Shown: piece after piece, positions 1 through 43,127 of the stretch | Position numbering within the stretch: the first letter of the stretch is position 1 | Layout: the number at the start of each line of letters is the position of its first letter | Virus record (IMG/VR): IMGVR_UViG_2529293240_000022 | Length of the DNA stretch: 43,127 nucleotides | Reading direction: 5' to 3' (one strand) | DNA from: a virus | Taxonomy: Duplodnaviria > Heunggongvirae > Uroviricota > Caudoviricetes | Notes under the pieces: generated by a model | Told to the model about the DNA's origin: nothing | Databases searched by the model: none | What the model saw: only the letters and a program-made list of their open reading frames with translations | Program-made: the position numbers and the translations under genes

Positions 1-537
1 TCATGCGCATGTGCGTAACTCCGATAACTCGTTAAAGCGTTCCATAAACATCCCGTAGGCATGGCCTGGCGACAGTGGAATAACTTTGAACATCTCTGTG
101 GCAGAGATGCCTTCCAGTACTGGCCAGAAAGAGCCATCATCAAGCCCGAGATCGCGGCGTTCGGTTGCCAGCATGATGAGATCGGCATATTTCACGGGTG
201 TACTCATAACCGGGGGTAACCCGTATTTCTCACGGATTACTGTGTCTATTTTTTCTTCCATCCGTTTATAGTCAGGAAGAAAGCGTTTCAGTGGTGCGGG
301 GATGTCCTGGCAATACGCTTCTGTTGCATCATGCATTAACGCTTCAAAAGCAAATTCCTGCGGTACCAGCTGGCTGCAAAGCACCGCATGTTGGGCGACG
401 CTGTAGAAGTGTGAAAGATGACCGGCAAAGCGACAGATATTTGAAAGGGAAACCGCGATATCGTTAATATCGATGTCGTCTTTATTTATCCTGTCATAAT
501 AAAAATGCTTCCCGGAAAAAGTTTTAATAAATGACAT
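1..537 (-). CDS. yfdR: HD-domain phosphohydrolase, YfdR-like 5'-deoxynucleotidase (prophage early-left gene)
   Basis: ORF 1..564(-) translated; start taken at MSFIK; HD motif (LMHDATEAY); resembles K-12 CPS-53 YfdR from memory; stop codon at window edge. Confidence 0.7.
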   Translation of the reverse strand: MSFIKTFSGKHFYYDRINKDDIDINDIAVSLSNICRFAGHLSHFYSVAQHAVLCSQLVPQEFAFEALMHDATEAYCQDIPAPLKRFLPDYKRMEEKIDTVIREKYGLPPVMSTPVKYADLIMLATERRDLGLDDGSFWPVLEGISATEMFKVIPLSPGHAYGMFMERFNELSELRTCA

Positions 538-720
538 TTTGTTCTCCACGTATATGCGTTGCACTGTGCTGAATTCTGGTAAAAGGAAGCCCTCACCATC
601 TGGCGATTATTGGGTAAATTATGTTTACATAAATGCCCCCGCAGGGGCATTTGCAGTAATGAAATCAGGCGGTGAAAGTGAGGTGTACTGGCAATAGCGG
701 ACACTACCATTTGTTCTTTT

Positions 721-1539
721 TTAAGCAGCCATCTGATGATATTTTTCCCTGAAGGCTGCCGGGGAGATATTCCCCAGACGAGAGTGACGACGCTGACGAT
801 TGTAGAAAATCTCAATGTATTCCCGTATTACTGAGATGGCTTCATCCCGGTTATTAAAACGATAGTGGCTCAGGCTCTCATTTTTCAGCGTTCCCCAGAA
901 GCTTTCCATCGGAGCGTTGTCGTAACAGTTACCTTTACGCGACATTGATGTTTTCAGACCAAACTGCTCCTGTATGACCCGGTAATCGTATGCGCAGTAC
1001 TGTGAACCTCGATCAGAGTGGTGGATTAGCCCGGCAGGTGGGCGCTGGCTCCTGAGCGCCATAAACAGGGCTTTACCTGTCAGCTCTTTTGTCATGCGCT
1101 CTCCCATGGCGTAGCCGACAATTTCGCACGTATAAACATCTTTGATGCCAGCGAGGTACAACCATCCCTCCTGTGTGGCAACATACGTCAGGTCCGCCAC
1201 CCAGACCTGATTTGGTGCTGTAGGAGCGAACGTCTGGTTCAGCAGATTTGGCGCAACTGGCAGATTGTGGTTCGAGTTCGTAGTCGCTCTGAACTTGCGT
1301 TTCTGCTTACAGCGTAGCCTTAGCTCCTTACGAAGACGTGCCAGTCGGTCACGACCAACGATGATGCCATTCTCTGCCAGCTCCGTCTGGAGCCGCCGGG
1401 TTCCATATGTTTCGCGAGTGCGGATATGTGCCACCTTAATCTCCAGTTTTAGCCGCTCATTACTTTGTTTTCTGTCTGAGGGTTCATGCTGTACCCAGTT
1501 GTAATAACCGCTCCTGGATACACCAAATACCTGACACAT
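721..1539 (-). CDS. IS3-family transposase OrfB (DDE integrase core); probably made as an OrfAB fusion by -1 frameshift at 1620-1626
   Basis: 272-aa ORF with conserved integrase-core motifs (HSDRGSQY, CYDNAPMESF). Confidence 0.8.
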   Translation of the reverse strand: MCQVFGVSRSGYYNWVQHEPSDRKQSNERLKLEIKVAHIRTRETYGTRRLQTELAENGIIVGRDRLARLRKELRLRCKQKRKFRATTNSNHNLPVAPNLLNQTFAPTAPNQVWVADLTYVATQEGWLYLAGIKDVYTCEIVGYAMGERMTKELTGKALFMALRSQRPPAGLIHHSDRGSQYCAYDYRVIQEQFGLKTSMSRKGNCYDNAPMESFWGTLKNESLSHYRFNNRDEAISVIREYIEIFYNRQRRHSRLGNISPAAFREKYHQMAA

Positions 1540-1933: not shown

Positions 1934-2755
1934 CTACCTCAAAGTACCAATAAAGGTTTCTACTTTGCTGTCTTTGAATTTCTCAACAAGCAGATCACGA
2001 AATTCGTTAGCCATTTCTTCCTGCACCGCTTCCAGCTGAATAATGCGCAGAACCAGTACAGGACGATCGCCAGTGATAATGCTGAGGCGTAATTTAAACG
2101 GACGTTCTTTCAGACCTTCAAACGGAACGCATTTAAATTCAAATGCCACTGGCATAATGTCTTTGGTCTTCGCTTCGACAGACTCCATCAGGGAGCGTTT
2201 GCCGCTGAAGTCATTATCTTCAAAATCAGCGGTCTGGTTCGCTTCAATTGTGATTTTACGGATCGCCGCAGCCGCTTTGGTTGCCTGAATGGCGTCACCA
2301 TTAGCATCAAAGCCCACAAGGTAGTCGGCCCAGTCTTCAATCCATTCTGCCAGTGATTTCTGGGAGTTACGCTCGCCGTTAACAGACAACAGGGCAGAGA
2401 ACGGTGCTGTCTTTTTCAGTTTGAGAGTGGCGGTGTTATCTGCGTGACCTGGTTCATCAATAGTACCCAGGTTAAGCACACTGACGGCACGCATATTATC
2501 AGCATCGATAAAGCAGCGGGTGCCTTCATCTGCAAGATCTTTAGAATAACGGGTAAAGTCATCGATGCTGGCAGTGGAAAGCGCACCACGGAAACGGAAG
2601 CGATTTAAATTAAATTTTTCCAGATCATGAATGCGGAAATTCTCAGGCAATGCCACAGCATCGGCACCAATCTTACTGATAATTTCATTAACACCCTGAG
2701 CAGAAATAAGGGCATGGATTTGATTAATTGCGGTTGCGTCTAAGTTCTGAGACAT
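1934..2755 (-). CDS. yfdQ: YfdQ-like prophage protein (DUF2303-type), 273 aa
   Basis: ORF translation; resembles CPS-53 YfdQ from memory; synteny with yfdP/yfdR. Confidence 0.6.
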
Positions 2756-2820
2756 AATAAGTCCTCACTATATTAAGATATTCAGTGATGAGATAAATAA
2801 TCAGTTAATTAAGAACGATA

Positions 2821-3183
2821 TTAATGACCTGCTGCGCGGAGTTTTCCGTCAGGTTCACCGGCAAGAGTCAGTAATTGTCCCTGGTCTTCCTGCAGAATAG
2901 TCAGGCGACCACCGCGATTGACATACATCGGCGTTTCGGTGGTGTCTTCTTCGGAAATTTTCCCGCGGTTAGTCGGACGAACATATGAGAGTTTGTGTTT
3001 TATTTTCACACGGTTCTCATCAAACGGTTCGATTTCCAGATTGAGCGAGACCTTCCCTTTGGTTTTCGTGTTCATCACACCTGAAGCGACTTCACTGAGA
3101 ACAGCGCCGATTTTGGTTTCAAATACGCCGCCGTCCAGCTCCCCGATAAATGCCTGCACATCAGTACTGCGTTCGCTAGCCAT
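2821..3183 (-). CDS. yfdP: YfdP-like small prophage protein, start taken at MASERS
   Basis: internal Met of ORF 2821..3414 preceded by GAGGAG ribosome-binding site; the upstream part of the ORF overlaps a long hairpin and is unlikely to be coding. Confidence 0.55.
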   Translation of the reverse strand: MASERSTDVQAFIGELDGGVFETKIGAVLSEVASGVMNTKTKGKVSLNLEIEPFDENRVKIKHKLSYVRPTNRGKISEEDTTETPMYVNRGGRLTILQEDQGQLLTLAGEPDGKLRAAGH

Positions 3184-3230
3184 TTTGCTGCTCCTCATCA
3201 TATCGACCCTGCAAGGTCGGTTGGTTTCTC

Positions 3231-3319
3231 CACAAAACAGAGAAGAACACCTGCGGTGGCAGCCGCCCGGGTGGATTGGGTTATGAGCCCGTCGTCCGGT
3301 GATGCTCTTCTCTGTTTTG
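3231..3319 (-). promoter_or_regulatory. Long hairpin: 15-bp perfect inverted repeat (ACAAAACAGAGAAGA / TCTTCTCTGTTTTGT) around a GC-rich 59-nt core, in the untranslated early-left leader
   Basis: read directly from sequence: arms at 3231-3245 and 3305-3319. Confidence 0.5.
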
Positions 3320-3791
3320 TAAAAAGAGCGGTACCAGCCGGAAGCAAGTGTACAAACTGGTACCGCCAAAGCAGTGGCTGTTGTGGTGGGCTTGTCACTT
3401 AAGCGTATGGTCAACCTGACAACCCGGTGTCCTCAACGGGGAAGGAATAACCCCGCCATACTTACCGCCGCGCCATTTCGCGGATTACCACAACGCTGAG
3501 AGCACTTAGCCAGTTACGGCACCATACTTTGTCGCGGTTCCATAAATGCCCTCATCGTTGCACCCTGGTCTCTTCCCAGGCGTCAAACCGAATCGCCACG
3601 CTGGTTAGGCGTCTTATCAGCATCATCATTGACTTGCACATTCCGGCTACCTGGTTTGTTTGCCCGAGCAAGGAGTGGATTGTCCCCTTTAACGTCCCCA
3701 GACCGCTAACGACGCATGTGCCATACGCCGTGTTACAACCAAATTTTGTTAGTACCTTGTTTGTTGGTCTGGAAAGAAAGATAAAATGAAG

Positions 3792-3830
3792 TTGCGCATT
3801 ATGCAAGTATTTTTGTTGCGAGATATGCAA
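3792..3830 (-). promoter_or_regulatory. OL-like operator pair overlapping a putative leftward early promoter (pL)
   Basis: two 15-bp sites TTGCGCATTATGCAA (3792-3806) and TTGCGAGATATGCAA (3816-3830); on the minus strand a -35 TTGCAT / -10 TATCTT pair overlaps them. Confidence 0.5.
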
Positions 3831-3840
3831 TTTGATGGGT

Positions 3841-3865
3841 AATGAAAAGCCACCTTCGGGTGGCT
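3841..3865 (-). terminator. Rho-independent terminator downstream of the cI-like gene
   Basis: stem AGCCACC, loop CGAA, stem GGTGGCT followed by TTTCATT on the minus strand. Confidence 0.6.
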
Positions 3866-3885
3866 AATTGATGAGGAGGTAAGGG

Positions 3886-4578
3886 TTAATTGTGTCGCTT
3901 AAGGGTTTGTGACTGGCTGATTAAGACCTTTCCAAAGACCATAAACCGGTGTTCATTTTCGCTGGTAATTCCCCATTCACGATAAATCTGGTTATCAGAA
4001 ATCACCAGTAGTTTGTCAGGTATCATTTGCAGTCGTTTGACATAAATTTTATCATCAAAACCAAATACATAGATACCATCTCCATCAAACTGATTGATAC
4101 TGACATCAACGAAGATGAGATCTCCTGGCTCAATGGTTGGACACATACTGTCCCCACGAACGTTGATAACTTTAATGTGATTTGCTGGCCGTCCGCCAAA
4201 CATCGATACAGCATTATCAGTTCTGTATTCAATGGCATGAATCACATCAATGACATCACCGCCCTGGATAAGGCCATTTCCCGCACTGGCACTGACATCC
4301 AGCATTTCAATACGGAATACATCCTTCACCTGCGCAACATCCTCACTAATACTGTTTTTACATACAGTATTACTTTTGAAGTCTGAGGTAAAGAGATCAG
4401 CAATATCAACACCTAAGCTCCTGGCAATATTACTCAGGGCTTGTTCAGTGAATTGTTTCTGCTTACCTGTTTCCAGGCGTGAGATATTCGCCGCATCCAC
4501 TCCTATTGCTTCAGCGAGATCGGCGATTTTCATGTTCTTCGCCTGGCGAAGTTGTCTGACTCGGTTTCCTATGTTCAT
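3886..4578 (-). CDS. cI: CI-like prophage repressor: N-terminal HTH plus C-terminal S24 (LexA-type) autopeptidase domain
   Basis: 230-aa translation with HTH near the N-terminus, GDSM serine motif and VKRL lysine; divergent from the cro-like gene. Confidence 0.85.
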   Translation of the reverse strand: MNIGNRVRQLRQAKNMKIADLAEAIGVDAANISRLETGKQKQFTEQALSNIARSLGVDIADLFTSDFKSNTVCKNSISEDVAQVKDVFRIEMLDVSASAGNGLIQGGDVIDVIHAIEYRTDNAVSMFGGRPANHIKVINVRGDSMCPTIEPGDLIFVDVSINQFDGDGIYVFGFDDKIYVKRLQMIPDKLLVISDNQIYREWGITSENEHRFMVFGKVLISQSQTLKRHN

Positions 4579-4598
4579 GCGTTTATTACATTTCTTTA

Positions 4599-4662
4599 TT
4601 GCGCGTTAAGCAAATCAACTTGCGCAAAATATTTGCGTGAAATAATATGCCCATCACGCAAT
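4599..4662. promoter_or_regulatory. OR-like operator/promoter region between divergent cI and cro
   Basis: one full operator TTGCGCGTTAAGCAA (4599-4613) plus further TTGCG half-sites; putative pR -35 TTGCGC (4620-4625), 17-bp spacer, -10 TAATAT (4643-4648). Confidence 0.5.
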
Positions 4663-4675
4663 ATGTGGAGGTTAT

Positions 4676-4936
4676 ATGCAATCACCATTACGGAATGTGC
4701 GTAAGGCGCACGGATTTACTTTGCAGCATGTTGCTGCTGGCGTTCAGGTCAATCCAGCGACGCTGAGTCGTATTGAAAGACTGGAACAAATTCCATCTAT
4801 CGATCTTGCAGAACGTCTGGCCAATTTTTTTAAGGGTGAAATCAGCGAAATGCAGATTCTTTATCCGGCACGTTTTCAATCTAGCCAAAACCAGAATGGG
4901 TTTAAACCACAGGAACAGGAGGTAAGCCGTGGGTAA
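4676..4936 (+). CDS. cro: Cro-like HTH regulator, 86 aa
   Basis: XRE-type HTH pattern; position immediately right of the operator region; GGAGG ribosome-binding site. Confidence 0.6.
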   Translation: MQSPLRNVRKAHGFTLQHVAAGVQVNPATLSRIERLEQIPSIDLAERLANFFKGEISEMQILYPARFQSSQNQNGFKPQEQEVSRG

Positions 4937-5480
4937 TCATCACTGGAAAGTGGAAAAACAGCCTGAGTGGTACGTGAAAGCTGTCAGAAAAACTATCGCG
5001 GCGTTGCCGGGGGGTTACGCTGAAGCTGCTGAGTGGCTGGATGTAACAGAGAACGCTTTATTCAACCGCCTTCGTGCAGATGGCGATCAGATTTTCCCGC
5101 TGGGATGGGCAATGATTTTACAGCGTGCTGCTGGCACTCACTACATTGCGGATGCTGTCGCACAGTCTGCTGGTGGGGTGTTCGTATCGCTTCCTGAAAT
5201 TGAGGAAGTAGAGAACGCCGATATAAACCAGCGCCTGCTGGAAGTCATCGAACAGATCGGGAATTACTCAAAGCAGATTCGTTCGGCAATCGAAGATGGG
5301 GTCGTGGAGCCACACGAGCAGACAGCAATTAATGATGAGTTGTATCTGTCAATTTCGAAGCTCCAGGAGCATGCAGCACTGGTCTACAAAATCTTCTGCG
5401 CTCCAGAAAAGAGTGACGCCCGCGAGTGTGCAGCTCCGGGCGTCGTGGCGTTTTGTGTCTGTGGAGAAACTAACGCATGA
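4929..5480 (+). CDS. CII-like / YdaT-like regulatory protein (assignment uncertain), GTG start
   Basis: position directly after cro with 8-nt overlap; AGGAGG site 7 nt upstream of GTG; family call from memory only. Confidence 0.4.
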   Translation: MGNHHWKVEKQPEWYVKAVRKTIAALPGGYAEAAEWLDVTENALFNRLRADGDQIFPLGWAMILQRAAGTHYIADAVAQSAGGVFVSLPEIEEVENADINQRLLEVIEQIGNYSKQIRSAIEDGVVEPHEQTAINDELYLSISKLQEHAALVYKIFCAPEKSDARECAAPGVVAFCVCGETNA

Positions 5481-6628
5481 ACAGTTTAACGGCAAATAAC
5501 CGTTTGTCGCAACAGCTGGTGGTCAGTGTCGCTGAACACCTGTTGTTACGGCATGAATGCAGATTACCAGATCACCTGGCTGTAAGTAACCACAGAGAAC
5601 TTTACCTGACTGTGGGGGGCGAGTTGTGCAGGAACTTAACCGCTGGTTTCGTGACGGAAGAGGGCTTTATGTCCATGTTATTCGTTGGGAGCCAGAAACA
5701 CAGCGCGTTATCTATCTTCGCAAAGACTACCAGCATGAGTGCTTTAGTCCTTTGTGGAAATTCAGGCGTGATTTTGTTGAGTGTGAAGGACCACCAGCAC
5801 ATTGATTCTGCCATTCCGGGACGTTACACTGTTCAGGCACCTTATAAAGCGGGTGCCGGGATTGGCGTCCTGAAATTGATTACTGAGCATAACCGCGCTC
5901 ATGCGGTTTTTTCGTGTCATGAGCATTGCTACGCCCAAATTATGGTGGGGCGTACAGGGCCGACTTCGGTCGGGCCGGGTTCGGTAGTCTCCGGTAACGC
6001 CAACCCTGTACGTCTCACCACCTCTGTGATTGGCGTCCCATGTGGTGAGTTTTCTAAAAAACTGACTACCGGGGCTGTCACTATGACTACTCTCCCAACC
6101 CTCACTCAACCTGAAATTGCCATCGTTGATGGTCAGGCTGTTACTTCATCCCTGGCTGTTGCCAACTTCTTCTCCAAACGTCATGACGATGTACTGAAAA
6201 AGATCCGCACGCTTGAATGCTCCGCATCATTCACTGCCCGCAATTTTTCGGTGAGTGATTACACCGATTGCACAGGCCGCAAACTACCTTGCTATCAAAT
6301 CACCCGCGATGGCTTTGCGTTCCTTGCTATGGGCTTCACTGGTAAACGTGCTGCCCGGTTCAAAGAGGCATACATAAATGCCTTTAACCAGATGGAAAAA
6401 CTGCTTTCAAAGCCATCCACGCTGAGCGATGCCGCAGATAACGCCAGCGTGCTTTACTCCCACCTGTCGGTAATCCACAAGGTCTGGCTGCAGCAGCTTT
6501 ATCCCATGTTGGCAAAAGCCGAATCTCCGCTGGCTGTTAGCTTGTATGACTATATTAATGATGCTTCGGCGCTGGCCTGCCTCATAAATTTGTCGCTGAA
6601 TCCTTCAGAGGTAAGGGGGCGTAAATGA
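5477..6628 (+). CDS. Rha-family phage regulatory protein, copy 1, with unique 105-aa N-terminal extension
   Basis: Rha-type core (KRHDDVL...LPCYQITRDGFAFLAMGFTGKRA...FKEAYINAFNQME); ATGA overlap with upstream gene. Confidence 0.6.
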   Translation: MNSLTANNRLSQQLVVSVAEHLLLRHECRLPDHLAVSNHRELYLTVGGELCRNLTAGFVTEEGFMSMLFVGSQKHSALSIFAKTTSMSALVLCGNSGVILLSVKDHQHIDSAIPGRYTVQAPYKAGAGIGVLKLITEHNRAHAVFSCHEHCYAQIMVGRTGPTSVGPGSVVSGNANPVRLTTSVIGVPCGEFSKKLTTGAVTMTTLPTLTQPEIAIVDGQAVTSSLAVANFFSKRHDDVLKKIRTLECSASFTARNFSVSDYTDCTGRKLPCYQITRDGFAFLAMGFTGKRAARFKEAYINAFNQMEKLLSKPSTLSDAADNASVLYSHLSVIHKVWLQQLYPMLAKAESPLAVSLYDYINDASALACLINLSLNPSEVRGRK

Positions 6629-7527
6629 TCCGGAATATTTTCAAACTGTTTACCAATCGCCACCAGCACATTGATTCTGCCATTCCGGGACGTTACACTG
6701 TTCAGGCACCTTATAAAGCGGGTGCCGGGCGTGGAAACCCGAAATTCAATATAGAGCACAACCGCGCTCATGCGGTTTTTTCGTGTCATGAGCATCGTTA
6801 CGCCCAAATTATGGTGGGGCGTGCAGGGCCAACTTCGGTTGGGCCGGGTTCTATGTTGACCGGTATTTCCACCCCTGTACGTCTCACCACCTATATGGTC
6901 GTGGAAAGCCTTGGTGGTGAGTTCATTGAATTCAACATAGGGGCTGTCACCATGACTACTCTCCCAACCCAATCTCACCCTGAAATCACGATTATCAATG
7001 GTCGCGTTGTCACCACATCTCTTGCAGTAGCTAATTACTTTACTAAACGGCATGAGCGGGTTTTAGATAGAATTAGAAACCTCGAATGTTCCGCTGAATT
7101 TACTGAACACAATTTTGTGTTAAGTGAATACACCGACGCATCAGGCCGCAAACTCCCTTGTTACCAAATCACCCGCGACGGTTTTGCGTTTCTTGCCATG
7201 GGCTTCACGGGTAAACGTGCTGCCCAGTTCAAAGAGGCATACATCAATGCCTTTAACCAGATGGAGAAACAGCTTTCAAATCCCTCTGTACTGAGCGACG
7301 TTGCACATAACGCCAGCGTTCTCTATTCCTACATTTCATCAATTCATCAGGTCTGGCTGCAGCAGCTTTATCCTATGTTGGCAAAAGCCGAATCTCCGCT
7401 GGCTGTTAGCTTGTATGACTATATTAATGATGCTTCGGCACTGGCCTGCCTCATAAATTTGTCGCTGAACCCTTCAGAGGTAAGGGGGCGTAAATGATCC
7501 GGAATATTTTCAAACGGTTTACCAATC
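5792..7527 (+). repeat. Tandem direct duplication, two units of about 866 bp (5792-6657 and 6662-7527), mosaic identity
   Basis: first ~70 nt and last ~140 nt of the units are near-identical while the interior is substantially diverged, with an in-frame 3-nt indel; the 36-nt junction ATGATCCGGAATATTTTCAAAC... occurs at 6625 and 7494. Confidence 0.8.
6625..7497 (+). CDS. Rha-family phage regulatory protein, copy 2 (alternative internal start at 6952)
   Basis: paralogue of copy 1 with identical 5' and 3' ends and a diverged core; ATGA overlap. Confidence 0.65.
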   Translation: MIRNIFKLFTNRHQHIDSAIPGRYTVQAPYKAGAGRGNPKFNIEHNRAHAVFSCHEHRYAQIMVGRAGPTSVGPGSMLTGISTPVRLTTYMVVESLGGEFIEFNIGAVTMTTLPTQSHPEITIINGRVVTTSLAVANYFTKRHERVLDRIRNLECSAEFTEHNFVLSEYTDASGRKLPCYQITRDGFAFLAMGFTGKRAAQFKEAYINAFNQMEKQLSNPSVLSDVAHNASVLYSYISSIHQVWLQQLYPMLAKAESPLAVSLYDYINDASALACLINLSLNPSEVRGRK

Positions 7528-8996: not shown

Positions 8997-9089
8997 ATGA
9001 GTCTGTTAAATGACGTTCAGAAATTCATTGAAGCCCATCCGGGCTGTACTTCCGGAGACATTGCGGATGCTTTTTACGTGGGGGCTTAA
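8997..9089 (+). CDS. Small ORF (30 aa) translationally coupled to neighbours
   Basis: ATG 4 nt after upstream stop; TAATG overlap with downstream methyltransferase; below the ORF-track cutoff. Confidence 0.3.
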   Translation: MSLLNDVQKFIEAHPGCTSGDIADAFYVGA

Positions 9090-9742
9090 TGAGTAATAAA
9101 TATTGCCAGGCGCTGGTAGAACTGCGGAACAAACCAGCCCATGAACTGAAGGAAGTGGGCGATCAGTGGCGCACGCCGGACAACATTTTCTGGGGAATTA
9201 ACACCTTGTTTGGTCCGTTTGTTCTGGATCTGTTCACTGACGGTGATAACGCCAAATGTGCCGCGTATTACACGGCGGAAGACAACGCGCTGGCGCATGA
9301 CTGGTCAGAACGTCTTGCGGAGCTTAAAGGTGCTGCCTTTGGCCATCCCCCGTACAGCCGCGCCAGTCAGCATGAGGGGCAATACATCACCGGCATGCGT
9401 TACATCATGAAGCATGCCAGTGCCATGCGTGATAAAGGCGGGCGCTATGTTTTCCTGATCAAAGCTGCCACCAGCGAAGTGTGGTGGCCGGAAGATGCAG
9501 ATCATATTGCTTTTATTCGCGGGCGTATTGGTTTTGAACTGCCTGCCTGGTTTATCCCGAAAGACGAAAAGCAGGTGCCAACAGGTGCTTTCTTCGCTGG
9601 TGCTATTGCTGTTTTCGACAAGACCTGGAAGGGACCGGCAATCAGCTACATCGGGCGCGATGAACTTGAGGCATGTGGTGAGGCATTTCTGGCGCAGGTT
9701 CGCCAGCAGGCGGAAAAACTGGTCAGGGAGATGGTGGCATGA
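9089..9742 (+). CDS. Phage Dam-family DNA N6-adenine methyltransferase
   Basis: HPPY motif (AFGHPPYS) and phage-Dam-like N-terminal region. Confidence 0.7.
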   Translation: MSNKYCQALVELRNKPAHELKEVGDQWRTPDNIFWGINTLFGPFVLDLFTDGDNAKCAAYYTAEDNALAHDWSERLAELKGAAFGHPPYSRASQHEGQYITGMRYIMKHASAMRDKGGRYVFLIKAATSEVWWPEDADHIAFIRGRIGFELPAWFIPKDEKQVPTGAFFAGAIAVFDKTWKGPAISYIGRDELEACGEAFLAQVRQQAEKLVREMVA

Positions 9743-10128
9743 AGCTAATACTGCCTTTTCCGCCCAGCGTGAACACGTACTGGCGACACCCCAACAAAGG
9801 GGCATTTGCTGGTAAGAGCCTGATAAGCGAGGCGGGGCGAAAATTTCAGAGCGCGGCGTGTGCCGCCATCATTGAGCAGTTACGTCGTCTGCCGAAACCA
9901 ACGTCGGCACCTGCTTCAGTGGAGATCGTGTTGTTTCCTCCGGATAACAGGATCCGCGATCTGGACAACTATAACAAGGCGCTGTTTGACGCCCTGACCC
10001 ACGCGGGTGTGTGGGAAGACGACAGTCAGGTGAAAAGAATGCTGGTGGAGTGGGGACCGGTTATCCCGAAAGGGAAGGTCGAGATCACTATCAGTAAGTA
10101 CGAGAAAACGGCGGGTGCAGCCGCCTGA
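9739..10128 (+). CDS. rusA: RusA-family Holliday-junction resolvase
   Basis: 129-aa translation with RusA-like pattern (LPFPPSVNTYWRH...RDLDNYNKALFDALT); ATGA overlap. Confidence 0.8.
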   Translation: MKLILPFPPSVNTYWRHPNKGAFAGKSLISEAGRKFQSAACAAIIEQLRRLPKPTSAPASVEIVLFPPDNRIRDLDNYNKALFDALTHAGVWEDDSQVKRMLVEWGPVIPKGKVEITISKYEKTAGAAA

Positions 10129-10147
10129 TCAAGAGGAGAAACGAAGT

Positions 10148-10957
10148 ATGAATAATCTGATGGTCATTGATGGTATTGAAGTTCGTCGTGATGTTTATGG
10201 GCGTTACAGCCTGAACGATCTACATCGCGCAGCAGTAGCATCTGGTGCAAATGCCAGAACCAAGGAGCCAGGAAAGTTTCTTTCCAGCCAACAAACTGTT
10301 GAACTTGTTCATGAATTGACCAACACCCAGAATTTGGGTGTTGACCCGGTGAGTGTGATTCATGGGGGAAATGAACGGGGAACTTATGTCTGCAAGGAAC
10401 TGGTGTATGCCTATGCAATGTGGATCAGCCCGTCATTCCATCTGAAGGTGATCCGTACTTTCGACATGGTAACCAGCACACCGGAAAAATTATCCGGACA
10501 GGCTGCTGACAAGATGCAGGCTGGTGTGATTCTGCTGGACTTTATGCGTCGGGAATTAAACCTGTCTAACTCATCTGTGCTTGGTGCCTGTCAGAAACTC
10601 CAGGAGGCTGTTGGCTTACCGAATCTGGCACCACGCTATGCCATTGATGCTCCTGCTGATGCACACGATGGCTCAAGTCGCCCGACACTGTCACTGAGTG
10701 CACTGCTGAAACAGTATGGTATCCGCCTGACGGCTAATCAGGCATATCACCAGATGGTGAAGCTGGGGATCGTCGAGCAGCGCGAACGATACAGCCGTAC
10801 CGCGATTAACAACATCAAAAAATTCTGGTCGCTGACAGCGAAAGGCTGCATGTTCGGCAAGAACATCACCAGTCCCGCAAATCCGCGCGAGACGCAGCCG
10901 CATTTCTTCGAATCCCGATTCCCTGAGCTGTTAAAGCTGCTCGATACCGTTCATTGA
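10148..10957 (+). CDS. KilA-N domain protein (antirepressor-like)
   Basis: N-terminal KilA-N-like region (YSLNDLHRAAVASG...CKELVYAYAMWISPSFHLKVI); start at MNNLMV. Confidence 0.55.
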   Translation: MNNLMVIDGIEVRRDVYGRYSLNDLHRAAVASGANARTKEPGKFLSSQQTVELVHELTNTQNLGVDPVSVIHGGNERGTYVCKELVYAYAMWISPSFHLKVIRTFDMVTSTPEKLSGQAADKMQAGVILLDFMRRELNLSNSSVLGACQKLQEAVGLPNLAPRYAIDAPADAHDGSSRPTLSLSALLKQYGIRLTANQAYHQMVKLGIVEQRERYSRTAINNIKKFWSLTAKGCMFGKNITSPANPRETQPHFFESRFPELLKLLDTVH

Positions 10958-10958
10958 G

Positions 10959-11954
10959 GTGACCGTGAGAGCACTACTGACCCCTGAAATTGCCCCGCGT
11001 ATGGGGATCGTATTGTTCAGGCCAGGTTCAGAGCTGATGCCCCTGTTTATGCAGGGGCGTGTCCTGCTGGAGCCTGAGCCGGAACGTTATTCATCTTTCG
11101 CCAGCGGTGCCGTTCCGGCAGCATCACAACCGCTGGCGGATGATCCTGCCGTTCGGGCCGTGTTCCGCCATGAGGTGGTGATCCGTCGTGCTGGTGGCGT
11201 GGAATGCCTTGAGAGCTGGTTACTTCGTGAAAAGGGCTGTCAGTGGCCTCATTCCGACTGGCACAGCGAGAACATGACCACAATGCGGCACGCGCCAGGC
11301 GCAATCCGTCTGTGCTGGCACTGTGACAATCTTCTCCGTGACCAGTTCACGGAACGGCTGGAAGCAATGGCAACGGATAACTGTGCCCGCTGGGTGTTGT
11401 CTGTTGTGCGCCGTGATCTTGGTTTTGATGACAGTCACGTTGTGACAATGCCGGAACTGTGCTGGTGGCTGATTCGTAATGACCTGGCGGATGCCTTACC
11501 GGAAAGTGCAGCCCGTAAGGCACTGAGATTACCGAAGCCTGTTGTGCCGTCTGTCACCCGGGAAAGTGACCTTGTGCCTTCGGTTCCTGCCACCAGCATC
11601 ATCCAGGATAAGGCGAAAAAGGTGCTGGCGCTGAAAGTGGATCCGGAGTCGCCGGAGTCTTTTATGTTACGCCCAAAACGTCGCCGCTGGGTTAATGAAA
11701 AGTACACGCGCTGGGTTAAGACGCAGCCGTGTGCATGTTGTGGTAAGCCAGCCGACGATCCTCATCACCTGATTGGTCATGGTCAGGGTGGAATGGGTAC
11801 AAAAGCGCATGACCTTTTTGTGTTGCCTTTGTGCAGAAAACACCATGACGAACTGCATGCGGATACCGTGGCATTTGAAGAGAAGTATGGTTCCCAACTG
11901 GAGCTGATATTTCGTTTTATCGATCGCGCGCTGGCGATTGGTGTGCTGTCCTGA
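10959..11954 (+). CDS. DUF968-like phage protein with C-terminal Cys/His cluster (possible HNH-like), GTG start
   Basis: C-terminal CACCGK...HHLIGHGQGG...CRKHHDELH; nin-region position. Confidence 0.45.
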   Translation: MTVRALLTPEIAPRMGIVLFRPGSELMPLFMQGRVLLEPEPERYSSFASGAVPAASQPLADDPAVRAVFRHEVVIRRAGGVECLESWLLREKGCQWPHSDWHSENMTTMRHAPGAIRLCWHCDNLLRDQFTERLEAMATDNCARWVLSVVRRDLGFDDSHVVTMPELCWWLIRNDLADALPESAARKALRLPKPVVPSVTRESDLVPSVPATSIIQDKAKKVLALKVDPESPESFMLRPKRRRWVNEKYTRWVKTQPCACCGKPADDPHHLIGHGQGGMGTKAHDLFVLPLCRKHHDELHADTVAFEEKYGSQLELIFRFIDRALAIGVLS

Positions 11955-11971
11955 TTTTGTGGAGAAAGTTG

Positions 11972-12358
11972 ATGCGTGATATTCAGATGGTTCTTGAACG
12001 CTGGGGGGCATGGGCTGCAAGTGGTAACACCGGGGTGGACTATTCTCCGATCGCTGCCGGATTCAAAGGACTTTTACCATCTGCCACTAAACCACGTCCG
12101 GCCTGCTGCGATGATGACGGACTTATCATTGAAAACTGTCTTGCTCGTCTGAAGCAGAAAAAACCTGAGGAGTATTCGCTTCTCATTGCTCATTATTTGT
12201 TGCGAATATCAAAAAGACAGATAGCCAGGACGAGAAAGAAAAGCGAAAAAGCAATACGAATTGAGATGCAGATAGCCGAAGGGTTTATTGACGGATGTTT
12301 GTCTGTGCTGGGGGTAAGACTGGAGATGGACGACTGGCTGCTAAAAAGTAAAAAATGA
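11972..12358 (+). CDS. Q: Late-gene antiterminator Q (QuuD/phage-21-type)
   Basis: N-terminus MRDIQMVLERWGAWAA resembles DLP12 QuuD from memory; GGAGAAAG site; followed by a tR'-like terminator. Confidence 0.7.
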   Translation: MRDIQMVLERWGAWAASGNTGVDYSPIAAGFKGLLPSATKPRPACCDDDGLIIENCLARLKQKKPEEYSLLIAHYLLRISKRQIARTRKKSEKAIRIEMQIAEGFIDGCLSVLGVRLEMDDWLLKSKK

Positions 12359-12420
12359 TTAGTGCGGTCCGCAAAAAGTATGTCAGTATGTTAAGAGTGG
12401 TTACTTCGCCACACAGCTTA

Positions 12421-12445
12421 AACCCGCCGCGAGCGGGTTTTTTTA
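12421..12445 (+). terminator. tR'-like rho-independent terminator downstream of Q (late promoter pR' expected just upstream, not pinned)
   Basis: stem CCCGC, loop CGCGA, stem GCGGG followed by T7. Confidence 0.7.
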
Positions 12446-12566
12446 TGGCTGAAATCGGTCCAGTACAGTAAACGTGCTGGTGGCGGTGAATACCTGTCTT
12501 TCAGCTTGCTGGCTTTTTCGACAAGAGTTATTGGTGTGTCACGTTAACCGAAAAAGGGAAAAAGAC

Positions 12567-12764
12567 ATGCTGAAACAGCAGGATATGACAGAAACCGCCA
12601 GAGTGGTGTTTAATGAATTAAGCGTCACCGAACCGGCGACAGTCGGGGAGATTGCGCAGAATACTTACCTTTCACGCGAACGCTGCCAGTTAATACTGAC
12701 CCAGCTGGTTATGGCGGGTCTGGCAGACTATCAGTTCGGTTGTTACAGACGCCTTCCGCAGTGA
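12567..12764 (+). CDS. Small winged-helix protein (65 aa), FaeA/PapI-like pattern (uncertain)
   Basis: AGGGA site; motif TVGEIAQNTYLSRERCQLILTQLVMAGL. Confidence 0.45.
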   Translation: MLKQQDMTETARVVFNELSVTEPATVGEIAQNTYLSRERCQLILTQLVMAGLADYQFGCYRRLPQ

Positions 12765-12776
12765 AGGCTTTTTTAT
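12751..12776 (+). terminator. Hairpin plus T-run overlapping the stop of the small wHTH gene
   Basis: stem GCCTTC, loop CGCAGT, stem GAAGGC followed by TTTTTTAT. Confidence 0.45.
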
Positions 12777-12915
12777 TTGTGGTAAATGGGCGGCTGGTGG
12801 GTGTTAGGGGCACCCACCAGCCATCTGCTCATGCGTTGGGGTCACAAGCAAACCTCAGGCCCATCTGCTTTGCGCAAAAGCGGTATGAGCCTATCAGAGA
12901 AGTGCTTATTGATCT

Positions 12916-13965
12916 ATGGCTAATACTGTAAAAATATCCAGTTGTGAGTTAATCAACGCCGACTGCTTGGAATTTATCCGGTCGTTACCCGAAAATTCTG
13001 TTGACCTGATAGTCACGGACCCGCCGTACTTTAAAGTGAAGCCTGAGGGCTGGGATAACCAGTGGAAGGGCGACGATGATTACCTGAAGTGGCTGGACCA
13101 GTGTCTGGCGCAGTTCTGGCGGGTGCTGAAACCTGCCGGAAGTCTTTACCTGTTCTGTGGTCATCGCCTGGCATCTGATATCGAAATCATGATGCGTGAA
13201 CGCTTCAGTGTGCTGAACCATATTATCTGGGCGAAGCCGTCCGGACGCTGGAACGGATGCAACAAGGAAAGCCTGCGGGCGTATTTCCCCGCCACAGAGC
13301 GCATTCTGTTCGCGGAACATTATCAGGGGCCGTATCGTCCGAAAGATGCCGGGTATGAGGCGAAGGGCAGGGCACTGAAACAGCATGTGATGGCCCCGCT
13401 GATTGCTTACTTTCGTGATGCGCGCGCTGCCCTGGGGATAACGGCAAAACAGATTGCAGATGCCACAGGAAAGAAAAACATGGTGCCGCACTGGTTCAGT
13501 GCCAGTCAGTGGCAGCTACCGAACGAAAGCGATTATCTGAAATTACAGTCGCTGTTTGCCCGGGTGGCAGAAGAGAAACATCAGCGCGGGGAACTGGAAA
13601 AGCCACACCACCAGCTGGTCAGCACATACAGTGAGCTGAACCGGCAGTATATGGAACTGCTGAGTGAATATAAAAATTTGCGGCGGTATTTCGGTGTGAC
13701 GGTGCAGGTGCCGTACACCGATGTGTGGACGTATAAACCGGTGCAGTACTATCCAGGGAAACATCCGTGCGAAAAACCGGCAGAAATGCTGCAGCAGATA
13801 ATCAGCGCAAGTAGTCGTCCTGGTGATCTGGTTGCGGATTTTTTCATGGGGTCGGGTTCAACGGTAAAAGCGGCGATGGCACTGGGGCGTCGTGCGATTG
13901 GTGTTGAGCTGGAGACCGGACGTTTTGAGCAGACAGTCAGGGAAGTTCAGGATTTAATCGTTTGA
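12916..13965 (+). CDS. Beta-class DNA amino-methyltransferase (N6-adenine or N4-cytosine), apparently orphan
   Basis: DPPY motif near N-terminus (VTDPPYF) and FxGSG motif near C-terminus (DFFMGSGST); no adjacent endonuclease-sized ORF. Confidence 0.8.
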   Translation: MANTVKISSCELINADCLEFIRSLPENSVDLIVTDPPYFKVKPEGWDNQWKGDDDYLKWLDQCLAQFWRVLKPAGSLYLFCGHRLASDIEIMMRERFSVLNHIIWAKPSGRWNGCNKESLRAYFPATERILFAEHYQGPYRPKDAGYEAKGRALKQHVMAPLIAYFRDARAALGITAKQIADATGKKNMVPHWFSASQWQLPNESDYLKLQSLFARVAEEKHQRGELEKPHHQLVSTYSELNRQYMELLSEYKNLRRYFGVTVQVPYTDVWTYKPVQYYPGKHPCEKPAEMLQQIISASSRPGDLVADFFMGSGSTVKAAMALGRRAIGVELETGRFEQTVREVQDLIV

Positions 13966-14014
13966 AACGGATGAGATTGCAGTATTAATTCCGTAACGTT
14001 ATTATTCTGCGCGC

Positions 14015-14090
14015 GGCCCTTTAGCTCAGTGGTGAGAGCGAGCGACTCATAATCGCCAGGTCGCTGGTTCAAATCCAGCAAGGGCCACCA
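14015..14090 (+). tRNA. ileZ: tRNA with CAU anticodon, tRNA-Ile2 (lysidine)-like, ileZ-like
   Basis: cloverleaf folded by hand: 7-bp acceptor stem GGCCCTT/AAGGGCC, anticodon loop CTCATAA, T-loop TTCAAAT, 3' CCA; closely resembles E. coli ileX. Confidence 0.8.
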
Positions 14091-14099
14091 TATCACATA

Positions 14100-14176
14100 C
14101 CGCCATTAGCTCATCGGGATAGAGCGCCAGCCTTCGAAGCTGGTTGCGCGGGGTTCGAGTCCTCGATGGCGGTCCA
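14100..14176 (+). tRNA. tRNA-Arg (anticodon UCG), argN-like
   Basis: cloverleaf folded by hand: acceptor CCGCCAT/ATGGCGG, anticodon loop CTTCGAA, T-loop TTCGAGT, 3' CCA. Confidence 0.7.
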
Positions 14177-14189
14177 TTATCTGTACCCT

Positions 14190-14266
14190 GCGTTGTTAGC
14201 TCAGCCGGACAGAGCAATTGCCTTCTAAGCAATCGGTCACTGGTTCGAATCCAGTACAACGCGCCA
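14190..14266 (+). tRNA. tRNA-Arg (anticodon UCU), argO-like
   Basis: cloverleaf folded by hand: acceptor GCGTTGT/ACAACGC, anticodon loop CTTCTAA, T-loop TTCGAAT, 3' CCA. Confidence 0.75.
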
Positions 14267-14280
14267 GACTTATTTTTCCC

Positions 14281-14305
14281 GGCTCGCTTTTGCGGGCCTT
14301 TTTTT
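14281..14305 (+). terminator. Rho-independent terminator after the tRNA cluster
   Basis: stem GGCTCGC / GCGGGCC (one G-U pair), loop TTTT, then T7. Confidence 0.5.
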
Positions 14306-14501
14306 AAATGTCTCACAATTCAGACGGTTGACAGTTGTCTGTTTTGCGGGGAGTTTGTTAAAAGAAACTGGCATGGTGAATCCCCCTGTGCGGAGGGGCA
14401 ATCAGCGAGTAGGTATATGGGATAATCGCGGATTCAGGTGCTGGTACTGAATTCACCGGGAGGCACCCGGCACCATGCAATGGCACATAGCGCCACTCTC
14501 C

Positions 14502-14561
14502 AGCCCCTCTCCGGAGGGGCTTTCTTATGGACAAAAAAAGCCCGCGCTGGGAGACGCGGGC
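14502..14561. terminator. Back-to-back hairpins in the tRNA to nanS-p spacer
   Basis: plus-strand AGCCCCTC-TCCG-GAGGGGCT (14502-14521) then TTCTT; minus-strand terminator GCCCGCG...CGCGGGC (14540-14561) preceded by A7. Confidence 0.4.
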
Positions 14562-14754
14562 GGCAAGGAATAAACAACAAAACGTGAAGTAATATTTCAG
14601 CTGGCGAATAATATCCGACAGTAATCACTCTGCGCAATAGCGCGGCCTTTTTCGTATTGCGGGCTGTTGTCTCTCTTCTGCCATTGTCCTGTAACTTCCG
14701 GACTTCAGCCCGCTCCTCATTTTACTCACAATATTATCCCGGCCGGGAGGATTC

Positions 14755-16608
14755 ATGGCATTTAAACACTATGATGTTGTCAGGGCGGCGTCGCCGTCAG
14801 ACCTTGCGGAAAAGCTGACACACAAACTGAAAGAGGGCTGGCAGCCATATGGCGGACCGGTTGCCATTACGCCGTACACACTGATGCAGGCGGTGGCTAT
14901 TGAAGGAGATCCACAGGTCGGCCCTTCATCTGAGCCGGACTGGTTCTACGTGGTTGTGCTTGCCGGACAGTCCAACGGCATGGCCTACGGTGAAGGGCTT
15001 CCGTTACCGGATTCTTACGATGCTCCGGATCCGCGCATTAAACAGCTGGCGCGCCGCAGCACGGTAACTCCGGGTGGAGAGAGTTGTACGTATAACGACA
15101 TCATCCCGGCTGACCACTGTCTGCATGATGTGCAGGATATGAGTACGCTGAATCATCCGAAGGCAGACCTGAGCAAAGGGCAGTACGGCTGTGTCGGCCA
15201 GGGCTTACATATTGCCAAAAAACTGCTCCCGTATATCCCGAATAACGCGGGGATCCTGCTGGTACCATGCTGTCGTGGTGGTTCGGCATTCACCCAGGGC
15301 GCGGAGGGGACATTCAGTGCGGACGCGGGGGCCAGCCAGGATTCGGCGCGCTGGGGTGTGGGTAAACCGTTATATCAGGACCTGATTGCGCGCACTAAAG
15401 CTGCATTACAGAAGAACCCGAAAAATGTGTTGCTGGCGGTGTGCTGGATGCAGGGAGAGTTTGACATGAGCGCCGCCACCTACGCACAGCAACCTGCGCT
15501 GTTTACAGCCATGCTGAAGCAGTTTCGTGCTGACCTCACTGTGTTTAACGCGCAGTGTCATGGTGGCAGTGCTGTAAATGTGCCGTGGATTTGTGGTGAC
15601 ACGACGTATTACTGGAAAAACACCTACGGCACGCAGTACAACACCATTTACGGGGCGTACAAAAACAGGGAGAGTGAGGGCGTTTATTTTGTGCCCTTCA
15701 TGACAGACGGTAACGGCGTCAATACCGCCACTAACGCGCCGGCAGAAGATCCGGATATTCCGGCATCAGGATATTACGGTGCGGCATCGAGAACGAATGG
15801 AAACCAGGTATCATCAAACCGCCCGACACATTTCAGTTCATGGGCGCGCAGGAGCATTATTCCGGATCGTATGGCAACCGCTATTCTGAACGCAGCCGGG
15901 CGCACCTCAGCCTTCATCAGTGGTAAGGCACCGGAAATCAAACCCTCGCCCGGCGGCGACACGCCATCGGGGCCGCCTGAAGATGCATCCGTACGCACAA
16001 TCTCCCTGCTGCCGACAGCCGGAGAGGCTGCTGCGCAGGGCTGGACCATTAAGGACGGCGGAATTCAGTTGTCGGGTGGTGTATTTAAGATCGCCAAGCA
16101 GAGCAATAAAACCTGGTCCCTGATGCATCCGGTGGATGACGCAGTCTCCCTGCTGACACGGGGTGGCAGACTGAGCTGTAAGTTTCGACTGTCAGGCGCA
16201 CTGACCAACAACCAGTTCGGTCTGGGAATTTATCTGTATACCGATGTAGCGTTACCTGACGTCGTGGCGATGACCGGGACTGGTAACCCGTTCCTGATGT
16301 CGTTCTTCACCCAGACCACAGACGGCAAACTGAATCTGATGCATCACAAGAAAGCCGGAAACACAAAGTTGGGCGAGTTCGGGAATTACAGTAACGACTG
16401 GCAGACGCTGGAGCTGGTGTTCACCGCCGGCAGTGCCACGGTTACTCCGAAACTGAATGGAGTGGCTGGCCCGGCATTCCAGGTCATAAAAGACAGTCTG
16501 ACACTGGGACTGAATGCGTTGACGCTGACGGATGTTACAAAAAATGCAGCGTATGGCGTTGAGATAGAAAGTCTGGTGCTGGAGATAAATGCACCGGCAT
16601 CATCATAA
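14755..16608 (+). CDS. NanS-p-like prophage sialate O-acetylesterase (N-terminal DUF1737-like region plus SGNH hydrolase)
   Basis: 617-aa translation with GQSN motif (VVLAGQSNGMAYGEG); position between tRNAs and lysis genes as in Stx phages; GGGAGG site. Confidence 0.65.
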   Translation: MAFKHYDVVRAASPSDLAEKLTHKLKEGWQPYGGPVAITPYTLMQAVAIEGDPQVGPSSEPDWFYVVVLAGQSNGMAYGEGLPLPDSYDAPDPRIKQLARRSTVTPGGESCTYNDIIPADHCLHDVQDMSTLNHPKADLSKGQYGCVGQGLHIAKKLLPYIPNNAGILLVPCCRGGSAFTQGAEGTFSADAGASQDSARWGVGKPLYQDLIARTKAALQKNPKNVLLAVCWMQGEFDMSAATYAQQPALFTAMLKQFRADLTVFNAQCHGGSAVNVPWICGDTTYYWKNTYGTQYNTIYGAYKNRESEGVYFVPFMTDGNGVNTATNAPAEDPDIPASGYYGAASRTNGNQVSSNRPTHFSSWARRSIIPDRMATAILNAAGRTSAFISGKAPEIKPSPGGDTPSGPPEDASVRTISLLPTAGEAAAQGWTIKDGGIQLSGGVFKIAKQSNKTWSLMHPVDDAVSLLTRGGRLSCKFRLSGALTNNQFGLGIYLYTDVALPDVVAMTGTGNPFLMSFFTQTTDGKLNLMHHKKAGNTKLGEFGNYSNDWQTLELVFTAGSATVTPKLNGVAGPAFQVIKDSLTLGLNALTLTDVTKNAAYGVEIESLVLEINAPASS

Positions 16609-16719
16609 AAAGTGAGCCAGTCAAATGGAAGGTATCGTTAAACTCACCGGTAGTGTCAGTGGGTCGTCTGAGACGCCTGCATGAGTTATCAGAGCCATCA
16701 GTACTTAATGGATTTGCCC

Positions 16720-42543: not shown

Positions 42544-43127
42544 TGGCATTCAGAATGAGTGAACAACCACGGACCATAAAAATTTATAATCTGCTGGCCG
42601 GAACTAATGAATTTATTGGTGAAGGTGACGCATATATTCCGCCTCATACAGGTCTGCCTGCAAACAGTACCGATATTGCACCGTTAGATATTCCGGCAGG
42701 CTTCGTGGCTGTTTTCAACAGTGATGAGTCATCGTGGCATCTCTTTGAAGACCATCGGGGTAAAACGGTTTATGACGTGGCTTCCGGCGACGCGTTATTT
42801 ATTTCTGAACTCGGTCCGTTACCGGAAAATGTTACCTGGTTATCGCCGGAAGGGGAGTTTCAGAAGTGGAACGGCACAGCCTGGGTGAAGGATACGGAAG
42901 CAGAAAAACTGTTCCGGATCCGGGAGGCGGAAGAAACAAAAAACAACCTGATGCAGGTAGCCAGTGAGCATATTGCGCCGCTTCAGGATGCTGCAGATCT
43001 GGAAATTGCAACGGAGGAAGAAACCTCATTGCTGGAAGCCTGGAAAAAGTATCGGGTGTTGCTGAACCGTGTTGATACATCAACTGCACCTGATATTGAG
43101 TGGCCTACGAACCCTGTCAGGGAGTAA
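42543..43127 (+). CDS. tfa: Tail fibre assembly protein (Tfa)
   Basis: 194-aa translation typical of lambdoid Tfa; TAATG overlap with stf. Confidence 0.8.

Follow-up and report, generated by a model that had tools for sequence, protein, structure and literature searches.

When the late region of a lambdoid prophage has the gene order of a Shiga toxin (Stx)-converting phage and contains no stx genes, it has to be asked whether the toxin genes were lost, whether other cargo has taken their place, or whether the slot for them is simply unoccupied. This question is raised by the IMG/VR virus record IMGVR_UViG_2529293240_000022 (Caudoviricetes; 43,127 nt, the whole of which is referred to here as the window), in the region from the late antiterminator gene Q to the sialate O-acetylesterase gene nanS-p (12359–16608) and its surroundings. 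An initial annotation of this DNA had proposed an stx-negative relative or an stx-loss derivative of the Stx phages, with other genes that depend on Q filling the cargo slot. The analysis presented here indicates that this is very probably the late region next to Q in a mosaic lambdoid Escherichia coli prophage that is stx-negative, and that the ‘moron’ slot in it, the position of stx2AB in Stx2 phages, is unoccupied. The configuration is ordinary and has already been described.

The moron slot downstream of the tRNAs

Gene order was checked using the open reading frame (ORF) list of the window, ARAGORN, and Rfam. The lambdoid late order is present (Q, tR', rare-codon tRNAs, nanS-p, and the lysis cassette) and aligns with that of the Stx2d phage Stx2_112808 (LC567830). 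A set of 395 phage records, mostly from Stx-converting phages, matched the 4.35-kb region, placing synteny far above chance. The synteny with Stx-phage late regions that the initial annotation had claimed was borne out by these records and by a two-block alignment to LC567830, and the order that it had given (Q, a tR'-like terminator, a winged-helix protein, a methyltransferase, tRNAs with anticodons CAU, UCG, and UCU, and NanS-p) was recovered with every element at or near the position where it had been placed. Searches of the whole window for stx yielded only chance-level matches, both with tblastn for Stx2A and Stx2B (best E = 0.47) and with blastn for the 1335-bp stx2AB cassette (best E = 0.17). 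As there is no match to stxA or stxB and no ORF of toxin size within 14267–14754, the window is not an Stx-converting phage.

The position at which the toxin genes occur in Stx2 phages is bounded on its left side by a module of three tRNAs and a terminator:

14015–14090, plus strand: tRNA with anticodon CAU, ileZ type (ARAGORN, Rfam)
14100–14176, plus strand: tRNA-Arg (UCG), argN type (ARAGORN, Rfam)
14190–14266, plus strand: tRNA-Arg (UCU), argO type (ARAGORN, Rfam)
14281–14306, plus strand: intrinsic terminator closing the tRNA module, the left edge of the moron slot (terminator scan)
14305–14308, no strand: empty moron slot, at the position of the 1335-bp stx2AB cassette in Stx2d and Stx2a phages

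The CAU tRNA is called Met by ARAGORN and Ile by RefSeq and by the record of Nil3. The terminator of the tRNA module is kept in the Stx2d and Stx2a phages, where it lies directly 5' of the stx2 cassette.

Aligned against LC567830, the window falls into two blocks, with 11901–14304 corresponding to locus positions 2541–4945 (94.6% identity) and 14309–14862 corresponding to locus positions 6281–6857 (about 80% identity). The intervening 1335 bp of LC567830 (locus positions 4946–6280) consist of a 53-bp leader, stx2A, stx2B, and a 41-bp trailer, in place of which the window has ~4 bp. The Stx2a phage LC645409 also has a 1335-bp insert at the identical two points and, for all of the Stx2a and Stx2c phages in the phage collection, the match stops at 14304 (query base 115) and restarts at 14309 (base 5 of the right probe). 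The flanks run uninterrupted to the edges of the cassette, and none of the deletion scars that the initial annotation had envisaged within 14267–14754 were found in comparison to the stx flanks; the tRNA-terminator module simply abuts the one with STnc100 and nanS-p.

At the empty site, the window, the prophage of E. coli strain ZH063, PhiR49_2, and Nil3 have the junction GGGCCTTTTTTT followed directly by AAATGTCTCACAATTCAG, compared to a filled site that reads GGGCCTTTTTT, then ATATCTGCG...stx2AB...GTGTAATCTGTG, then TCACAATTCAG. The start of the right-hand module (TAAAT..CTCACAATTCAG) was also identified 3' of tciB in JLK-2012 and, after a 35-bp filler, in phi296, an stx-negative phage of the Traversvirus tv86 species. 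One and the same right edge is preceded by varied cargo (stx2AB in LC567830 and LC645409, tciAB in JLK-2012, and the 35-bp filler in phi296) or by nothing at all (the window, Nil3, PhiR49_2, and ZH063). Because the start of the right-hand module follows such differing cargo, it represents a recurrent module boundary, as opposed to the scar of a deletion. Juhala reportedly recognized a moron slot downstream of pR' in 2000, and the slot in the window is equivalent to the ‘moron’ site that Tree et al. 2014 placed downstream of pR'.

Using a collection of 5426 complete E. coli genomes, it was possible to explore how common this arrangement is. The whole 4.35-kb region was present in 1125 genomes (≥80% of the probe covered) and a 241-bp junction probe in 1043 (≥80% covered; about 19%), with the empty-junction genomes including strains labelled as uropathogenic E. 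coli (UPEC). The best full-length matches to the 4.35-kb region (98.3–98.6% identity) included none annotated with stx under the match. Identity at the junction was 100% for ZH063, 99% for phage PhiR49_2, and 97% for Nil3, and in the flanks the stx-negative prophages were 98–100% identical to the window compared to 94.6% (left) and 80–86% (right) for the Stx phages. The nearest relatives are stx-negative (98–100%), and no sequenced Stx phage is near enough to have been a recent parent.

The alternative that survives best is a recent loss of stx, in which an Stx2 phage would have lost exactly the 1335-bp stx2AB cassette after short repeats at the two ends recombined illegitimately. Such a loss would be in agreement with homology to Stx2 phages that extends right up to the cassette edges and with the 5-bp ATCTG that borders the cassette on either side in Stx2d and Stx2a phages. 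However, both flanks have stx-negative prophages as their closest relatives (98–100%), with the Stx phages at 94.6% on the left and 80–86% on the right, the identical junction occurs in 1043 of the 5426 genomes, UPEC-labelled strains among them, the right-module edge recurs behind other cargo, and the one copy present at the empty junction is ATGTC rather than ATCTG. Further, documented loss of stx has usually been loss of the whole prophage, which also counts against an excision confined to the cassette. Overall, a recent loss appears improbable; the half of the initial proposal that named an stx-negative relative is upheld by the absence of any stx match, while the half that named a loss derivative is not, given the lack of a scar and the stx-negative relatives.

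Several points weigh against an stx-negative prophage with an unoccupied slot. The ATCTG repeats are weak evidence that fits either direction of change, and they could mediate a deletion. Sequence alone proves neither insertion into an empty site nor precise loss. Promoter scans from the end of Q to the hairpin at 12420 identified no convincing pR' and, when a 12-kb stretch of the window (9000–21000) was considered, no complete E. coli genome in the collection matched more than 78% of it.

Contents of the gap between the tRNAs and nanS-p

The gap of ~490 bp without an ORF of toxin size that had been reported by the initial annotation measures 488 bp (14267–14754), and the longest ORFs that overlap it are short chance ORFs. 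It had been treated as a mere spacer, an assumption that is not supported, and is the normal intergenic module found between stx2B and nanS-p. The following features were assigned within it:

14342–14532, plus strand: PasD-related gene for an STnc100-family small RNA (sRNA), including a terminator of its own at 14502–14521 (Rfam RF02076)
14533–14601, minus strand: candidate convergent short RNA of ~69 nt (promoter scan, terminator scan, and fold)
14630–14653, plus strand: terminator-like hairpin upstream of nanS-p, overlapping the −35 of the minus-strand promoter

The match to STnc100 spans the full model (positions 1–206 of 206; 139.2 bits compared to a gathering score of 47; E = 9e-31), and the element was also identified by Rfam in LC567835, in Nil3, and in LC567830, where it lies 75 nt after stx2B; measured from the slot, it is equally far away in the window and in the Stx2 phages. 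This 75-nt distance matches the location described for STnc100 in Stx2 phages, and the RNA has been detected by reverse transcription quantitative PCR in vesicles from E. coli that produces Shiga toxin (STEC; PMC12370729). STnc100 is related to PasD of enteropathogenic E. coli (EPEC; Zhu et al. 2026). STnc100 would be expected to be expressed from the window locus. Promoter scans identified no textbook promoter for the gene, with the best candidate being TTGTCT-18-TAAAAG with an upstream TG. The idea that the 488 bp are a decaying, non-functional spacer or pseudogene debris, which would accommodate the lack of an ORF of meaningful size and the RefSeq annotation of ZH063 (a partial ‘hypothetical protein’ pseudogene only), is scarcely credible in view of the full-length STnc100, the experimental detection of this RNA in STEC (PMC12370729), and a convergent terminator/promoter segment that is kept in Stx2d and Stx2a phages, phi296, and Nil3 despite a gap identity of ~80%.

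The minus-strand candidate possesses a promoter-like sequence (TTGCGC-18-TATTAT) and a terminator (14561 to 14540, read on the minus strand) that is followed by U7. The unit is kept in LC567830 (Stx2d), LC645409 (Stx2a), phi296, and Nil3, though the gap overall is only ~80% identical, and substitutions among the phages cluster in its G/U-rich 5' part (GUUUUGUUGUUU). In LC567835 the homologous position is held by AgvB (96.5 bits, Rfam), which shares the TTGCGC −35 and is unrelated to the sequence in the window. An Rfam search down to E ≤ 1 over 12300–18400 assigned no family to the minus-strand unit (AgvB RF02702, AsxR RF02703, or any other) and none to the spacer between nanS-p and the holin gene. 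Convergent pairs of sRNAs have been described at the pR' moron site in lambdoid prophages of enterohaemorrhagic E. coli (EHEC; Tree et al. 2014), where an AsxR or AgvB anti-sRNA is paired with an RNA encoded on the opposite strand. The unit of ~69 nt bounded by the promoter-like sequence and the terminator fits this architecture and would be a short RNA. A more specific proposal, that it is an expressed RNA of a third, unnamed family in the anti-sRNA position that AgvB or AsxR hold elsewhere, is possible and rather doubtful. The unit is common to stx-negative prophages and Stx2a/Stx2d phages and, if the proposal were true, the RNA could target RNAs of the host without any involvement of the toxin.

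Q and the genes upstream of the tRNAs

Domains and families were assigned using Pfam, NCBIfam, PHROG, and PDB relatives, and folds using AlphaFold (AF2) and Foldseek. NCBIfam returned no family for Q, for the small ORF that follows it, or for NanS-p. Five features were placed between the start of Q and the tRNA module:

11972–12358, plus strand: late antiterminator Q (Pfam PF06530, PHROG 79, Q21 structures)
12420–12447, plus strand: tR'-like intrinsic terminator, an 8-bp stem with five G-C pairs and then a T7 run (terminator scan and sequence)
12567–12764, plus strand: 65-amino acid winged-helix protein of unknown function (AF2 and Foldseek; PHROG 331, unknown function)
12751–12776, plus strand: terminator-like hairpin over the stop codon of the small ORF (terminator scan)
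12916–13965, plus strand: beta-class N6-adenine/N4-cytosine DNA methyltransferase of 349 amino acids, with a large insert between the motifs (PF01555 and motifs)

The Q ORF extends from 11957 to 12358, with the ATG at 11972 as the probable start based on alignment with annotated homologues. The resulting protein of 128 amino acids belongs to the Q21 family, with matches to Phage_antitermQ (PF06530; E = 1.7e-52, 176.8 bits, cut-off 26) and, over residues 8–86, to the Q21 structures 6JNX and 6P18 (E = 8e-8). It represents the 126-amino acid ‘QO111’ type described previously (PMC10462455) with a 2-amino acid insertion near the C-terminus, and shares 98% identity with its counterparts in ZH063 and the Stx2d phage LC567830. 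At the C-terminus (12340–12358) the window has …LLKSKK compared to …LLKK in ZH063, PPyecE_EH1910, and the Stx2d phage Stx2_112808. The G+C-rich hairpin with its T7 run at 12420–12440 would be tR', based on its position 62 bp after the stop codon of Q, and near the end of Q the promoter scans returned only weak sigma-70-like matches (12327–12356).

The small ORF has been named ‘TrmB family’ in the sources, and its match to Pfam TrmB (E = 0.0026) is below the cut-off. A single-sequence AlphaFold model was unusable (predicted local distance difference test [pLDDT], 53), and a model based on an alignment of 24 homologues was used instead. This model (pLDDT 90.6) has the topology H1-S1-H2-H3-beta-hairpin, with helices at residues 4–16, 26–33, and 37–49 and strands at residues 24–25, 53–56, and 59–62. 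Its best matches in Foldseek were the winged helix-turn-helix (wHTH) domains of IclR and MarR regulators (query TM-score [TMq], 0.77–0.81), and the wHTH assignment holds as a predicted fold. The methyltransferase was identified from its match to N6_N4_Mtase (PF01555, E = 1.9e-44), with motif IV (DPPY) at residue 35 and motif I (FMGSGS) at residue 310, the order of the beta class, and with PDB relatives that include M.RsrI and CcrM; the protein is predicted to have methyltransferase activity. Both proteins are 100% identical to the copies in ZH063 and 94% identical to those in the Stx2d phage LC567830.

The occupied cargo slot of the initial annotation would require these two genes, the wHTH ORF and the methyltransferase, to be alternative morons that displaced stx in the role of Q-dependent cargo. 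The two are located between Q/tR' and nanS-p, each with terminator-like hairpins on both sides, yet in LC567830 both occur upstream of the tRNAs alongside stx2AB, and a 352-amino acid methylase group is present in Stx2a phages with the 126-amino acid Q (PMC10462455). As their position differs from that of stx and both coexist with stx2, they do not replace it. Such a replacement is very unlikely, and the stx-negative prophage with an empty slot is preferred.

NanS-p, IS2, and the start of the lysis cassette

Downstream of the gap, the region continues to the lysis cassette with three features:

14755–16608, plus strand: NanS-p-type sialate O-acetylesterase, 617 amino acids (Pfam, 3PT5, 6YP6, motifs)
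16709–18039, minus strand: IS2, 1331 bp (NCBIfam TnpB, 728 bits, and TnpA, 276 bits, both above the cut-offs)
18095–18310, plus strand: P21-type holin S, the start of the lysis cassette (PF04971, E = 9e-33)

The 617-amino acid protein, previously suggested to be an esterase of the NanS-p type, is one on the basis of its domains (Pfam), which consist of DUF1737, a SASA catalytic domain, and a C-terminal DUF6645 of carbohydrate-binding type. Residues 60–379 match E. coli NanS (3PT5, E = 5e-120) and residues 422–613 match the C-terminal domain of NanS-p (6YP6, E = 2e-29). Blocks of the SGNH type are present (GQSN, residue 71; RPTH, residue 356) and align with those of NanS, with the RPTH variant of block IV having been reported for Stx2 phage 86 (PMC10462455). 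The esterase is predicted to be active. It is 92–93% identical to the copies in PPyecE_EH1910 and JLK-2012 and 54% identical to the 648-amino acid copy in the Stx2d phage LC567830. Genes for NanS-p in prophages without stx have already been documented (PMC10462455). In PhiR49_2 (locus 5001–5734) and ZH063 (locus 6001–6733) the holin gene comes immediately after the STnc100 module, with no nanS-p between them. Since these close relatives run from STnc100 to the holin without it, nanS-p is an optional module.

Between nanS-p and the P21-type holin gene, IS2 is flanked by a 5-bp target duplication (CTTAA at 16704–16708 and 18040–18044) and sits in the loop of a 12-bp terminator hairpin. When IS2 was excised in silico, the restored site was identical to phage LC567835 (156 of 156 nt). 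In the collection of complete E. coli genomes, none has an IS2 inserted here. The insertion may exert polarity on the genes for lysis and late functions, and it disrupts any RNA ending at that terminator. Small RNAs of the PasA/PasC type have been reported at the nanS-p-to-holin position in EPEC. Holin S forms the downstream end of the Q-proximal region.

Phage backbone

The early region is ~95% identical to both Stx2 phages (1720a-02, Stx2k, and Stx2a_1447) and non-Stx phages (mEp460, PhiR40_1, and the cdtI phage), and the structural genes are lambda/21-like, such that the backbone is mosaic. Within the immunity region, two tandem copies of an isrK and C4 antisense-RNA pair were identified (5837–6025 and 6706–6894; Rfam, 59–82 bits), lying inside the tandem ORFs 5477–6628 and 6625–7497, each of which has Phage_ASH and Phage_pRha domains (Pfam). 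The match to the Ash domain coincides with the RNA genes, suggesting a duplicated control module of the P1/P7 antirepressor type and, possibly, ORFs with over-called 5' ends. A full-length match to Rfam IS009 (225 bits) at 42886–43084 adjoins the tail-fibre region, and the left end of the window (1–1539), by the early region, has an IS3-family transposase ORF (rve and HTH_21; 721–1539, minus strand).

Proposed expression and implications

Based on established lambdoid-phage biology, Q of the Q21 family would, after induction, modify RNA polymerase at a pR' located just 5' of the hairpin at 12420. Transcription would then read through tR' and subsequently through the hairpins at 12751, 14281, 14502, and 14630, allowing for the expression of the wHTH ORF, the methyltransferase, nanS-p, and the genes of lysis and morphogenesis. 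In the lysogen, the three rare-codon tRNAs, STnc100, and the probable convergent short RNA would be expected to have their own promoters. NanS-p would remove the 9-O-acetyl group from Neu5,9Ac2, making mucin sialic acid usable.

The direct significance of the locus is small. The late region composed of Q, tRNAs, sRNA, and nanS-p is a chassis that E. coli lambdoid prophages commonly share, found in its toxin-free form in ~19% of complete genomes, with stx2AB as a separate 1335-bp addition whose boundaries are fixed. Annotators should avoid labelling loci of this kind as degraded Stx phages, and STnc100 should be annotated in the seemingly ‘empty’ gap. For diagnostics, polymerase chain reaction (PCR) assays that target Q or the stx-flanking sequence will also detect stx-negative prophages. 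From an evolutionary perspective, the long homologous flanks in these prophages could let the stx cassette move by recombination.

Comparison with known systems

The locus most closely resembles two sets of prophages, distinguished by the presence of stx. The Stx2 phages with a QO111-type Q (the Stx2d phage LC567830 and the Stx2a phage of O111 strain 11128, PMC10462455) have the same order from Q to the P21-type holin. For LC567830, the shared order comprises Q, the tR'-like terminator, the 65-amino acid ORF, the methylase, ileZ-argN-argO with their terminator, STnc100, the short-RNA segment, and nanS-p, while the window differs in being without the 1335-bp stx2AB cassette, in possessing another allele of NanS-p, and in having IS2 upstream of the holin gene. 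ZH063, PhiR49_2 (ECOR13), and Nil3 (O157:H7) are stx-negative, as is the window, and have the identical empty junction, though Nil3 differs in its 144-amino acid Q of the Q933 type and in having no methylase. PPyecE_EH1910 and JLK-2012 differ in that tciAB occurs in place of, or after, the tRNAs, and PPyecE_EH1910 further possesses a toxin-antitoxin-like pair.

Two individual components can also be compared to characterized systems. NanS-p shares its three-domain architecture and its GQSN and R-x-x-H blocks with the NanS-p of EHEC prophages and the chromosomal NanS (YjhS), but its C-terminal domain has diverged from the crystallised domain of phi24B NanS-p (E = 2e-29 only). The plus-strand STnc100 and the minus-strand candidate resemble the sRNA pair of Tree et al. 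2014 in having convergent terminators and in lying between the moron position and a conserved downstream ORF. The minus-strand unit matches neither AsxR nor AgvB, however, and its 3' hairpin is unlike the ~42-nt conserved 3' region of that group.

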